A DNA stretch of 64,000 bases from Euglena gracilis (Eukaryota). This document shows, piece after piece, positions 34,268 through 61,000 of the stretch. A program made the position numbers and the translations under genes. The stretch spans positions 4,330,714-4,394,713 of the forward strand of contig CP154954.1 in the NCBI GenBank assembly GCA_039621445.1, read 5' to 3'. How positions within the stretch are numbered: the first letter of the stretch is position 1; every line of letters starts with the position of its first letter. The notes beneath the pieces are model-generated. The model made no database searches. It worked only from the letters and a program-made list of their open reading frames with translations, and had not been told where the DNA came from.

Positions 34268-37200
34268 TCATTTAAAGCCCAGGCGGAGGCTTCCATCGGC
34301 CTCAGAGCACTGTTGCGCACCTCGGTGGACTCTTCGCCGCGACCTGGAATGGAGCACTGTGGGGGGTTGCCACTGACAACGTGTCAACAGCAGCATAGAC
34401 AGCGATCGCCCACTGCATATCCAGGTTACAGTGAAGCACTCCTGGACATGGGGGACCAATGTGGTCGGACGCGACGAAAAGTTCAAAAGTTTCAGCCCCC
34501 GACTGGAACTAGGCCCGAGCTGAGGTGGATCCGAACCAGAATTTGGCACCAGAAATCGAAACTGCAAAAGTGGTCGAGAATCGCCAATTAAAATAAATAT
34601 TTTGACCCGAAAATTTGGCTGGCTAGCTGTTTCCTGCCCCCTTTTGCCAACTTCGATAGATGGGGGGGCTAGAGCTTGAAAAAGGTGGCTGGCTGGCTGG
34701 ACCCAACCCTGGGGATGGAGTTCCTGTCGGCTTCAGCAAATCCCTGTTTTGAGCCCGTTTGAAAAATCAAAAACCATTTGATAATCCCTCGTCCCTGAAA
34801 CGGTCTCCCTCATCGACGGGGGGCTGCCCACGAGAGGCCAACCCGCCTGCCGCCACCCCGGGCTGCGGTACGGTGCCCTGGACCAGCCGGACGACCTCCC
34901 CGTTCAGGTACGGGCTCTCCACCGCGACTTGCACCAGCGCCGCGAATTCCTCCGGCCGGCCGAGGCGCTTCGGGAATGGCACTGGACGCAGCAAATGGCC
35001 CGATGCTGGCTTTTGGGAAAACGTTGAGCGGTCAAGCAGACATCCTTCTCAAAAAAAAAAACGACACCCGGGTCTATTGTTTGGGCCGGTGCTCAACATC
35101 CTGGGGGTTCGTTTTTCCAGGTATTATATATGTATAATACTTATATATATGTGTAAGGAGAGAGGAGAGAGATTATATAGAGAGAGCGATAGAGGTGTTA
35201 TATATAATAATATATAGATCTAGATATATTATATAGATGATAATATATAGATAGAGATATATTGAGAGATAAGAGATATATATATATTATAATATATATA
35301 TATATATATATAGATATATATATAGATTTATATATATATATATATATATATAGTAATATATATATATATATATTATATATATATACATATTTGGATCTCC
35401 GGGGAAATTTTTCAGGAAAAAAAAGGTTAAAAAGTGCAAATTCTAACACAAATTAAATGGGCAAAAACAAAAAAGCCAAAAATGTCCCTTTGGGGCATTT
35501 TCACAACTTTAAGGGTTTAGCCTTCTCAATTCTTTCAAAAAATGCGGGGTGTCTTAATTAAATGACTTTGGTGTTTTGCTGAAAACTGAAGTGGGGCTGG
35601 AAATTTGGGTGTTTAGGGAAGGGAACTGCAACTGAACCCAGGGTGCACCAGCGAGGAAAAATACAATCCCAAATAAAATACCACATACATATATCTCACA
35701 ACTTCTTTCCTCGATTTGTTTTCACACGCAACAGAGATGACGGGGAAAGACTCAAAACAATCAATCACCATTACTGCATTTGTTTTCACCCCACCAACAC
35801 CCTTCTGAACAGCAAAAAGACTGTATGCACAATCAATTTTAAATGTGCTTTTGCCCATAAGGAATGGGAAAAATCACAAAATACTCGATCTTCGCTATGC
35901 ATACAGCCAAATTTACAAAGCCATCGTCTGGCCTGCTGGGCCAACACCTCCCGAGCCGCGGCGGGCACGGTCTCCGTCATCATCTGCGTCTCAAACATGC
36001 CGGGGGCGATCTGGAGGGGGGGGGGCGACGAAATTCATCCCAAAATTTTCGTAGGTCATATTGTGATCCCTACTCATTCGGCTTCGCAACTTTAAATAAA
36101 CACCCCAAATGTAACAGCCCCCCAAATAAAAAAAAAAATCCTCTGAGGACCTTGAAATCCCCCCCAAATATAAACCCCCCCCTCCGGCGCGAAGCGTGGG
36201 AAGGAAAGTTATATGACATAATATCTCCTCAAATTGTGATCCTTGGAAGATTTGGGAGCCCCCCAGATATAAACCCCCCGGTTTTATATTCGGAGGGAAA
36301 TTTCAAGACCCCCAGGGGCGTTTTATATTTTGGAGGGTTTTATATTCGGTCGGAAAAATCAACTTCTTGGCGGGATCCAGTAGTCGCTTTTCTTTTTAAT
36401 CACAGATACGCCCACCCTTGGGAGTCCGAACATTTCACTTTTAGGGCGAAGGAGCAAATTTCACATGTTTTTGGTAGGGGTTACGTCGCCGCATCAAGGC
36501 TACTCCAGAATTCCATCAACATGGCAAAATCGGAGAGTGGGTGGGGAGAAGTTTCTTGGGTGATTCGAAAATTACGGGGCATTTTGAATAAGTCCCGAAA
36601 AACGCAGGTTTTCCAATTGCTGCCACACCTCTTGCAAGATTTGAGCTTGGGGCCCACGTTTCAAAGGTGGCTACACTCGGGACGCCCATTGCAAAAGCCC
36701 TCCCCGTGCAGTGCAAAAGCCAGACCATGGCACACCAGACCATGACCTGAAAAGGCTTGGACTGCCCTATGGGGTTGCTCCCCCAAATCCAATGATCACT
36801 TTCCTGGGGGGAAGAAGCGGCCACAACCAGCAGAAGTGTAGACCTTAGTGGGGAGGGTCGCCCCCTTCAAAATCCGGTCACAAAAATATGCAAATGAAAA
36901 TTTTTCACTTTTTATTTCCTGGTTTGATGGGGAGGGATCAGGGGTTTTTTTTAGTCTTGGACCCCGTCCCCGGGGGGGAGGGGGGGTAAGGTGGACGGGT
37001 CTTGGACCTGGGCCTTGGACTCCCCTCCCCCCCCCCCTGGGGGCTGGGGGGGTGGGTATTGGGGCTGGTGGGTATTGGGGCTTTTTCGGGGCCGAATTAT
37101 TTTGGGGGCCCACCCCAGGGGGTGGGTGGGTGAGTGCTGACCCCCCCGGTCTTAAAAAAAAACCCTGGGAGGGATGTGACCTCTGCGCCTCAGGAGCTGC

Positions 37201-58000: not shown

Positions 58001-61000
58001 GTTTTGCGCCGAAGATAGAAGAGAAAACCCCTTCCAACGGGGTACCCACTCGGCCCGACCCCCAGGGGGGGGGGGGGCTCGGCTGGGACCCCCACATTTC
58101 TACCCCCCGGGTCATAAAACTTACAAATTTCACGAAAATCACGAAACTGACACTTTAAATTACCATCAAAATACATTGGGGGGAGGGGGGCAAGAACGTA
58201 TGGGAAGCCCTCATGGGGGTTCGGACCCCCTCTCAACAAAAAGGGGGGTGGGGTTGGTCGCCCCCCCTTCCTCCCTTCAACAACAAGCGGCCCAATTTTT
58301 TGGTTCTGTGGACCGTCGAAGGGCTGGGTAGCAAAGTTGTTTGAAAAAACCTCATTTTTTCTTTGAAAATAATTTAAATTTTATATTTTTGTCTTGAACA
58401 TTTTTTCCATGCGGCTCCACAACATAAAGAAATATATTTATGCTTAAACAATTTTGCATTTTCTGGGGCTGCAAATTGCACATTCCAGGTTAGGTTTATG
58501 TTGAAGACCCTCGCCCCGCCCCCACCAACCAAGCCCGGCACAGGAACCCATACCCTGGCCTCCGGCCCCAGACCCCCTCCCCCGGGAGGTCTTCTGACTT
58601 AAAAACAGGTCCAGCCGGAGTCCTTTTGCATTGTCAGGGCACACCTGTGCCTTCACCGGTGTTGGCTGAACTGGAATGCGGACTTCTCCGGGAGGAAGGA
58701 ACTTGGCGATGGGAACCATTGAGGCAAAAAAATTACACCAATTTGCACAACATTACCTCCAAAAGTGTTGGTGCTGTGGCGACTTGCATGTGTTCCCCTA
58801 GAAGGCCTCCGGTATTGATTAAAAAATGCCCGTGGTAATGTGCATGTGGTGCCCATAATGCACGTTGAAATTTTCCCAGAAAATAATCAAAATATCACTA
58901 AACAAGTAGTTTGTCCGACGGTTTGGAATTGTGCTAAAATACTGACCTGAAACAGATCCAAAGCCCTTAATACAGGACCAAAAGGCCCCCAAACACAATA
59001 AAGAATCAGGACAGACTATCTGCAGGGGGGGGGGAAATGCAACTTGGCCCTTCAAATTATGCAAGTCAAAAAAATGCAAAAAAATGCAAAAAAATGCAAA
59101 AAAAATGCAAAAAAATGCAACTTGCATGAAAACCTTGAGAAAAAGCTGGAATATGACAGAGCTTTGCTGCCTAAAATCAAAAAAATTTTCCAGGGCAAAA
59201 TATTTTATGCAAAAAAACGCAAAAAAATGCAAAAAAAATCCAAACATATGCCAACCAACTACAAATTTTTTTTCAAGGGCAAAATATTTTATGTAAAAAA
59301 TGCAAAAAAATCCAAAAAAATCCAAACATACGGCAACCAACTACAAAAAAATTTTCCAGAGCAAATATTTTATGCAAAAAAATGCAAAAAAATGCAAAAA
59401 AAATGCAAATTTCGGGAAAACCTGATTATGCAAAAAAATGCAAATTATGCAAGTTGCATTCCCCCCCCCTGCTATCTGACCAAAGTGGGTATCTGTGGAG
59501 AGATTGTGTGCATTTTTTTAAAAAAAATCATCCAGAACAGGTGACGTGGACTCCAGGCGGTCGGCCGGTGCCTGCTGCCGCCCCCCTGGACGGCAAAAAT
59601 TGCTGATTCTGTTTTTCTGTCAGACACCCACCGCCCCACCCCCCACTAATTCCCCTCAAGTCCACCCCACACTCAAGTGTGAGGGTCCACTTTAAACCAT
59701 CGGTGCCATTTAACGCACAAGTTCATTGTGTTTCCGGCCTCCAACTCCAACTGCCCAAGCACGGCCCACCGCCTCGCAGCGGGGACCGAACCACAACTGC
59801 GGAGGGGCCTCGCTGGCACCACAGAGGGGGCGGTGGCCCAGGGGCTCCCAGGCGTGGCCCGCCATCGGGGGGATGCCGAGCAGTGCCTCCACCGTGGTCA
59901 GGAGGGCGGGGGCGAGGCAGGGAGGGGCCGGGACGCCTGATCCCCGTCCTCCCCCAGAAAGAAGACCCTCGCTGCCGATTCGCAGCAAAAAAAAACAAGA
60001 AAAATCCGACCATCGCACCAAAACAATCATCGGCACCAAAATAATCCGACGAATTTTTATTGGGGGGGGGCAAAAAAATAAAACAGACCCACCTCTAAAC
60101 TGTGTAAGAACCACAAAATACTTAATACTCATTATTATACATTGCATTTATTATATTCTTCCTTTTTAGGAGTTTTGCATGAATAATCCTATCAGAAAGA
60201 AAGAGACACTTTCATTAAGCTCACTGGAACCACTGCATAAGACTCTTCTGACGTGATTTTTTTTCGCGAAAATCCAACAAATAAACACCCACAAACGCAA
60301 AGACCCTGAGTTGCTGAGCAGCCGACTCAAAAAGAAGACCTGGCCCCTTCTTTTGGGAAAAGGTTGCAGGGTGTGGATCCTGACACTTTGCTGTGGGCCC
60401 GGGGATTGTGTTTCTAGGTTGTCTTTGAAACCAAAACTGCGTTGTCATTGAAAACTGCGAACTGGAAATGTTATCATACATTATTTCACGTGTTAATAAC
60501 ACCCCATCCTCGGAAAAAAAATTAAAAATATACATGTTGAACAAACAGGGGCGCACAGGGCAGCACGGGAAGGACAGATGGGAAGGGGGTCGACCGCACT
60601 CACCACCGAACGTGTTCCGGGGATTCCTGTTCAGCCGGCGGCTCCGCCCTGGGAGATACTGTTGGCGGCGTTGTTCGGCCGGCCGACCTTGATGCCCCGC
60701 CCGTGGAGGCGATGCCCGTTCATCGCCTCCAGGGCGTACAGCGCCCCCTGGGGGGACACGAACTCGATGAAGCAGTAGCCCCTGCGGCGGCAAGAGGGAG
60801 CTGGCCGAGGGCAGCCCACAGACCTATTTGGGAACCTGCCCCGACCCTTTTCTGATGTACCCCGAAACATGAGCCATGGTCCAAACACGTTGAGTTTTTG
60901 TCACTGTTCTATTTGTTGTAAAAAATATCGCTTGAAGAGATATGGACACCCTAATTTGAAAACAACCGGGGTCAGAGATTCTTCAGGTTCCGGTGGGCGG

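Follow-up and report, generated by a model that had tools for sequence, protein, structure and literature searches.

The origin of the nonconventional introns of euglenids, and the mechanism by which they are removed, have been open questions since the 1990s. We address them here with a window of 64,000 nucleotides of Euglena gracilis DNA (the whole stretch analysed: assembly GCA_039621445.1, contig CP154954.1, positions 4,330,714 to 4,394,713 of the forward strand; all positions below are those of the window). The window is nuclear DNA of the E. gracilis type, and individual genes in it contain introns of both the GT-AG and the nonconventional class. It carries three genes, all on the minus strand, for an SDR dehydrogenase, a Rab GTPase and a PUF60-like RRM protein, and it also carries free MITEs (miniature inverted-repeat transposable elements) flanked by 8-bp target-site duplications (TSDs). 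The MITEs end in the CAG and CTG triplets that the splicing code of nonconventional introns requires, and the two spacers between these triplets and the intron ends add up to the length of their TSD. The likeliest explanation, which we hold to be moderately probable, is that nonconventional introns are old insertions of CAG-ended elements with 8-bp TSDs, removed from the RNA together with one copy of the duplication.

Splice junctions were taken from one raw RNA-seq run, one DNA-like run and two contig runs (presumed to be of RNA type) placed on 40950-60949, a part that does not reach the MITEs at 36939 and 38782 or the 3' half of the SDR gene. The joints examined were the 15 listed of 310, none of the 15 being in the RRM gene. 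Both RNA-type contig runs contained all 15 of them, the raw RNA reads 14 and the DNA-like run none; read on the minus strand, 7 were GT-AG and 8 were not. Mapping of a same-species protein, P0001, to the window gave three more non-GT-AG introns and one GT-AG intron, these being the SDR gene's four 3' introns. In the RRM gene, exon 57710-57838 used as a protein query gave zero matches and a second exon gave homologues from other species only, with no same-species transcript; junctions in this gene were therefore derived from the reading frame and a Eutreptiella homologue (P0122).

Between 34298 and 60632 there are 13 non-GT-AG introns, eight from RNA joints, three from P0001 and two from homologue and frame, as well as one unresolved intron of the RRM gene. 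In the eleven placed by RNA joints or P0001, the ends show no GT-AG or GC-AG in any mRNA-compatible register; the two from homologue and frame are putatively of the same kind. Eleven of the 13, here called code-type introns, carry CAG at positions +4 to +6, and CTG, or GTG in one case, stands 4-6 nt before their 3' end. Seven have the form N3-CAG...CTG-N5, one is N3-CAG...GTG-N5, two have N6 and one has N4 at the 3' end, and the last two lack the motif. The published code, 5'-N3CDG...CH'GN5-6|R, was obtained in E. gracilis from knock-in mutagenesis, with an obligatory 5' spacer of 3 nt and a 3' spacer for which 5 is optimal and 6 is tolerated (Nomura et al. 2025; PMC12501133; statements on published work here and below refer to the parts of each paper that were covered). 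CDG at +4 to +6 together with CH'G at 5-6 nt from the 3' end is strictly present in 9 of the 13 introns (seven N5, two N6). The first base of the downstream exon is a purine in 10 of the 11 code-type introns, the exception being 52880-53608 (C). The fourth base is G (CAGG) in 10 of the 11, as it is in 8 of 9 MITEs. Ungapped complementarity running inward from CAG and CTG covers 14/14 positions in intron 53866-54022, 7/7 in 49268-49875 and 9/11 in 52880-53608; SDR introns 1 and 3 pair weakly, over 3 bp only.

The nine MITEs of the window have inverted ends of approximately 16 nt, of the type CAGG(C/G)nTTTnnTTAAG, between 8-nt direct repeats; CAGGSNTTTNNTTAAG-ended families are among them. Eight of the nine start with CAG (53149-53493 starts with GAG) and all nine end with CTG, and the two TSD copies are identical at 8/8 positions in five elements, 7/8 in two and 6/8 in two. 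In 40 dinucleotide shuffles, a search for an exact TSD with terminal inverted repeats (TIRs) matching at 10/12 positions gave a mean of 0.125 matches (maximum 1), none of them CAG-started. The same search of the real window gave 13 raw matches outside two AT microsatellites, corresponding to six discrete elements, four of which start with CAG. One MITE of 271 bp (18633-18903) has 16/16 inverted ends (CAGGCTTCTTTTTAAG) and an 8/8 TSD (GTTTGGTC), and paralogues of its empty target site are found at 24692-24699 and at 15908-15915, in each of which GCTTGGTC occurs singly. The flanks of this MITE overlap by exactly 8 nt at both empty-site paralogues, which shows it to be a true insertion that made an 8-bp duplication. 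Segmental repeats with 74-95% identity are spread over approximately 12.9-24.9 kb (17612-19143 versus 23772-24928, also 15530-16059 and 21721-22104), and among these repeat units one copy holds the MITE while the others supply the empty site.

TSDs identical at 8/8 positions also flank the MITEs at 12403-12732 (GTCAGGTT), at 53149-53493 (ATCGGAAG; same family as 12403-12732 and nested in a Rab intron), at 33042-33472 (CCCCTGGG; 18-bp perfect inverted ends) and at 36939-37167 (GGAGGGAT; nested in SDR GT-AG intron 6). Those at 4019-4477 and 9323-9570 have 7/8 TSDs. The two with 6/8 TSDs are 38782-39233, which is nested in SDR intron 5 and is 82% identical to 4019-4477, and 60973-61243, which has CAGAG... 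ends and lies within an RRM-gene intron that is putatively GT-AG. In all, introns of the three genes contain four of the nine MITEs.

Since 3 + 5 = 8, one cut placed 3 nt ahead of CAG and another placed 5 nt past CTG take out a CAG...CTG element together with exactly 8 nt, the length of one TSD copy. At the level of the motif, N3-CDG...CH'G-N5 followed by a purine (R) is present in 15 of the 18 MITE-by-orientation cases, and an N3/N5 cut at those MITEs leaves one intact target 8-mer. In the predicted RNA folds, a long terminal stem closes the ends of MITE 18633-18903 (folded with its flanks) and likewise those of a 157-nt Rab intron. Synthetic 50-bp sequences consisting of N3-CAG, 12 paired bases, CTG-N5 and a purine were spliced in E. 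gracilis (PMC12501133), and the MITE ends therefore carry the published feature set. The initial annotation had described about eleven introns without GT-AG, mostly N3-[CAG...CTG]-N5 with two N6, and nine 8-bp-TSD MITEs of which nearly all begin with CAG and end with CTG, and had proposed that splicing at these offsets removes a MITE with one TSD copy. The counts given above bear out the first two statements, and the third holds as arithmetic that follows from the published code (PMC12501133).

If code-type introns descend from such insertions, remnants of the duplication might be retained in one particular register, and the 8 nt before CAG were compared with the 8 nt after CTG, intron by intron (all introns on the minus strand). 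The most MITE-like intron of the window is the 157-nt Rab intron at 53866-54022 (N3-CAG...CTG-N5, then G), which has 14-bp perfect inverted ends and in-register 8-mers (GCCAGGAA/GCCAAGAG) that agree at 6/8 positions; its joint, 53863>54021, is present in both RNA-type contig runs and in 0 raw reads. Another Rab intron, at 50778-52816, is also non-GT-AG and likewise scores 6/8 (ATCGAGTA/ATCGAGGT; N3-CAG...GTG-N5, then G; RNA joint 50776>52816, slide 6), with GTG replacing CTG and inverted ends matching at roughly 9/13. The remaining code-type introns of the Rab gene are 52880-53608 (N3-CAG...CTG-N5, then C; RNA joint, no slide; 3/8), which contains MITE 53149-53493, 49268-49875 (N3-CAG...CTG-N4, then G, with a 7-bp perfect stem; RNA joint, slide 1; 2/8) and 47839-48215 in the 3' untranslated region (UTR) (N3-CAG...CTG-N5, then G; RNA joint, slide 3; 3/8). 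In the SDR gene, introns 1 (43236-43925; RNA joint 43234>43925, slide 1) and 3 (41889-42176; RNA joint 41888>42177, no slide) are both N3-CAG...CTG-N6 and score 1/8 each, and introns 7 (34984-35933, then A; 3/8) and 8 (34298-34883, then G; 2/8) are both N3-CAG...CTG-N5 at P0001 junctions with slide 2. For the RRM gene, frame and homologue alone give a putative N3-CAG...CTG-N5, then G, for intron C (57853-60632; 3/8) and intron E (55916-56635; 4/8).

The 11 scores add up to 34/88. Pairs formed between different introns, used as a control, had a mean of 2.36, with 1 of 110 at 6/8, and permutation gave P = 0.04 for the total; for at least two introns at 6/8 or better, it gave P = 0.025. Offset 0 had the top total (34) among offsets -4 to +4, the runner-up being 30 at +2. 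When only the nine RNA- or protein-supported introns were considered, both 6/8 cases were retained (P = 0.014).

These results can be accommodated by a simple series of steps. A nonconventional intron here follows the published code, with an RNA stem closed by CAG at +4 to +6 and by CTG; one cut falls 3 nt ahead of CAG and the other 5 nt (sometimes 4 or 6) past CTG. A CAGG...CCTG-ended MITE could insert in an exon in either orientation, making an 8-bp TSD and, because 3 + 5 = 8, would leave the RNA with exactly one copy of the duplication, so that the message is restored. Nonconventional introns would descend from insertions of this class of element, most of the introns seen here being old, with their duplication decayed and their family likeness lost, and a few, such as the 157-nt Rab intron with its 14-bp perfect ends and 6/8 flanks, being younger. 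A strain-specific, recently gained nonconventional intron with eight-nucleotide direct repeats, intron 4 of gapC in E. agilis ACOI 323, has been described (Milanowski et al. 2016; PMC4770533). Descent from such elements is supported by the threefold coincidence of features, by the two scarred introns and by this published 8-nt repeat. The geometry of the introns fits the published MITE origin and does not prove it, and support from within the window is modest. What the window establishes is the intron geometry, the structure of the MITEs and the arithmetic, while the descent is an inference.

Several results weigh against this descent, and they have to be set beside the rival view that the agreement is a coincidence. 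By that view, the machinery would measure 3 and 5 nt from the stem for structural reasons, MITE ends and TSD length would be set by the transposase, and the introns would have had some other origin, for example in double-strand-break repair or in conventional introns. In other eukaryotes, 8-bp-TSD transposons commonly have ends of the CAG type. Flanks are at chance level (1-4 of 8) in 9 of the 11 code-type introns, and with the nine supported introns alone the total of 27/72 is not significant (P = 0.07). The initial annotation had put forward, as a genome-wide check, an 8-nt match in this register above chance; in the window, two introns reach 6/8 and the other nine do not. It had also put forward a clustering of introns against MITE families; in a blastn comparison of the 13 introns with the 64-kb window, none was an end-to-end copy of a MITE family or of another intron. 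Junction repeats are not specific to the nonconventional class, since long ones occur at GT-AG introns as well, one of which matches at 6/8 at -5..+3 and at 7/8 in its best window, partly through the AG|GT consensus. Three of the 11 introns are N4 or N6, so that 7 or 9 nt leave along with the element, and the non-GT-AG introns 37645-40998 and 47298-47681 are spliced without CAG or CTG at the code positions. When 10 MITE sites were checked by removing the element and one TSD copy, no frame for a recognisable protein ran through any of them, so that none of these MITEs is an exon-splitting intron; no joint at a MITE end is among the 15 listed, which is uninformative on MITE excision. In addition, experiments show flexibility in the acceptor spacer (PMC12501133), and the 8-nt repeat of the E. 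agilis intron was read by its authors as a footprint of double-strand-break repair (PMC4770533). Against coincidence, three independent features agree, namely the end triplets, a paired stem that starts exactly at them and a spacer sum equal to the TSD length. Two introns, moreover, have 6/8 flanks in the exact register predicted, and the newly gained E. agilis intron has repeats of 8 nt (PMC4770533). We consider coincidence unlikely.

The direction of events might also be the reverse, the splicing system being older and only those transposons that fit it being tolerated in or near genes, where they have become abundant, so that MITEs mimic introns and did not give rise to them. In the DNA-like run the MITE families reach very great depth; bin 52956-53622 (12403/53149 family) is at 234336 against approximately 42-75 in single-copy bins, a figure that is depth and not copy number. 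Such tolerance would also suit the location of four of the nine MITEs inside introns and the code-compatible state of 15 of 18 MITE orientations. Nothing in the window sets the order of the two events, however, and since a MITE that hits an exon would become an intron under this model too, it overlaps with descent of introns from MITEs. To this reverse order we give less credence still than to coincidence. The proposal of the initial annotation that these MITE families are the intron generators is partly supported: the geometry, the arithmetic and two scarred introns of 11 speak for it, and the lack of any intron that matches a MITE family of the window speaks against it. The particular families found here are candidates only, and present-day families may still be generating introns.

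A bolder form of the explanation is that CAG-ended MITEs with 8-bp TSDs are the living source of Euglena nonconventional introns, with a dedicated machinery that reads transposon ends in RNA, a 3/5 cut stagger matched to the 8-bp stagger of the transposase, and high-copy families acting as intron generators today. This we regard as possible but doubtful. If it were true, every insertion into an exon would be erased from the message at once, which would account for the share of approximately 70% that introns of this type have in a Euglena genome. The MITE hypothesis has so far been based on inverted repeats and on vague 'TSD-like' repeats. The abundant free elements ending in the required triplets and the identity of their duplication with the sum of the two spacers are what the window adds, and they make the hypothesis sharply and cheaply testable. 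If confirmed, the hypothesis would give a second, non-spliceosomal route from transposon to intron at the scale of a genome.

The superfamily of the MITEs bears on the transposase that would be involved. The label 'hAT-like' of the initial annotation is putative and is drawn from the 8-bp TSD and from end sequences of the CAGGG/CAGAG type, which we take to resemble hAT ends. The hAT TIR consensus begins YARNG; the MITE starts are CAGGG or CAGAG in six of nine cases and CAGGC or GAGGC in three. The ten longest open reading frames (ORFs) of the window gave no Pfam match and no transposase of any kind. The elements could instead be members of a different superfamily that makes 8-bp TSDs, for example Merlin, of which two families with 8-bp TSDs are present in E. 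gracilis (PMC8101967); the window MITEs agree with the 8-9-bp TSD by which Merlin is recognised. Merlin ends, however, have a conserved terminal 5'-GG-3' (PMC8101967), whereas the window MITEs start with CA and end with TG directly at the duplicated 8-mers, and these flanking 8-mers leave the boundary no room to shift. That the MITEs come from a superfamily other than hAT, such as Merlin, is, in our estimate, rather unlikely. A second 8-bp-TSD TIR family was observed at 30465-31950 (1486 bp); it starts with CAA, ends with TTG and is flanked by an exact repeat of 8 bp (ATGCCGAG), and its inverted ends are perfect over 12 bp (CAAGCACCTCTG). A metagenome scan with a long MITE end pattern gave 0 matches; with a short pattern, 120 stretches (80 of the 120 listed) had one match each, which was taken as chance.

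The SDR gene (3-hydroxyacyl-CoA dehydrogenase-like; 34268-43979, minus strand) has nine exons, established by P0001 mapping and four RNA joints. Its exon 40998-41201 is 99% identical to eukprot EG_transcript_14917 (P0001, 258 aa), which is derived from an E. gracilis transcript and maps at full length as nine pieces between 43979 and 34268. SDR intron 5 (37645-40998), non-GT-AG and off the code, was placed by P0001 mapping and by the loose end of an RNA contig at 40998; it contains MITE 38782-39233 and, at 40360-40950, a long TATACATACA-type microsatellite. Within SDR intron 8, a 59-nt fragment (34688-34746), away from the intron ends, resembles the 3' end of the 4019/38782 MITE family. A sliding repeat of 6 nt (AGGTCC) is present at the GT-AG intron 41208-41768, whose best 8-nt window reaches 7/8 identity. 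The spacer that separates the SDR gene from the Rab gene holds approximately eight tandem copies of a 24-nt unit (46363-46560).

The Rab gene (47183-54566, minus strand) has 12 exons and eleven RNA joints, and joining its exons accordingly gives a 213-aa ORF with the C-terminal end GGCCSYA. The stop codon lies within exon 49150-49267, which places the last three introns (47298-49149; one GT-AG, two non-GT-AG) in the 3' UTR; one of these, 47298-47681, is non-GT-AG and off the code (RNA joint, slide 2). Intron 50778-52816 (2039 nt) is spliced despite its GTG, can alternatively be read as TA..AG or GT..GA, and is filled with internal inverted and direct repeats (51270-52024). In the blastn comparison, the introns otherwise matched the window only through nested MITEs and one shared core of 50 nt. 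This core of the 157-nt Rab intron (53906-53955; three tandem CACGCCCAAT-like units) matches 15567-15614, 18330-18379 and 24397-24446 with 82-86% identity. Membership of the intron in a MITE family on this ground was rejected, the likeness being confined to the (CACGCCCAAT)x3-like core.

The PUF60-like RRM gene (55025-63554, minus strand) extends past 60632 and shows Pfam RRM_1 in three exons, with the Eutreptiella homologue P0122 mapped to it. Two of its derived junctions fit N3-CAG...CTG-N5, one (intron G) is the unresolved case counted above, and the rest look GT-AG, intron B being read as such from the frame alone. Other very deep bins in the DNA-like run (up to 456337) are 58959-59625, 44952-45618 and 50955-52288, suggesting further high-copy repeats in introns and spacers.

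Much of the interpretation offered here is already in print, and neither the general idea of a MITE origin nor the splicing geometry is new, the cutting code being known. The 11 of 13 introns with CAG at +4 to +6 and CTG or GTG followed by 4-6 nt, then a purine in 10 of 11, agree with the code of Nomura et al., as do the mixing of intron classes within genes and the frequent sliding junction repeats, whereas one N4, one GTG for CTG and two introns without the motif differ from it (PMC12501133). MITE-like elements figure in that paper as a potential source only, and the 8-bp duplication and free elements are not described in the parts of it covered. A MITE origin of euglenid nonconventional introns was proposed by Milanowski et al. 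in 2014 (PMC3935182) and repeated in a 2024 review, where a figure legend labels CAG/CTG as 'TIR' and the junction repeats as 'TSD' (PMC11282704). Our account shares with these the inverted repeats of intron ends as TIRs, the TSD-like junctions and an exon insertion followed by excision at the RNA level. In 2014 no transposable element had yet been identified in euglenids (PMC3935182), whereas free MITEs that share the end triplets of the introns and have an exact 8-bp TSD are present in the window; also added to that hypothesis here are one MITE with an empty site and the tie between the 3 + 5 spacer sum and TSD length. Intron 4 of E. agilis gapC, a young nonconventional intron between 8-nt direct repeats (PMC4770533), resembles what insertion of a MITE with its TSD predicts. 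In the literature searched, supplementary tables excluded, we found no explicit link of the 8-bp TSD to 3 + 5, and no account of free Euglena elements that have CAG ends and 8-bp TSDs.

Elements of comparable structure have acted as introns elsewhere. Giroux et al. (1994) reportedly showed that maize Ds, a hAT element with an 8-bp TSD and CAG-type ends, is removed from transcripts as a de novo intron after insertion, although its splicing is said to use cryptic spliceosomal sites and to be imprecise, with no dedicated cut that reads the element ends. Introners, found in Micromonas, dinoflagellates and others, are transposon families that create spliceosomal introns, their TSDs supplying or flanking the splice sites (PMC11282704). 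Introners leave the RNA through the spliceosome, and their intron copies are numerous and near-identical (PMC11282704), whereas the introns here follow a non-GT-AG code and form no multi-copy family in the window; a geometry with introner-like borders fits 8 of the 11 code-type introns, and TSD remnants of at least 6/8 are present in 2 of the 11. The logic is the same in both systems, in that a TIR element leaves the RNA with one copy of its TSD and insertion into an exon is thereby tolerated (PMC11282704).

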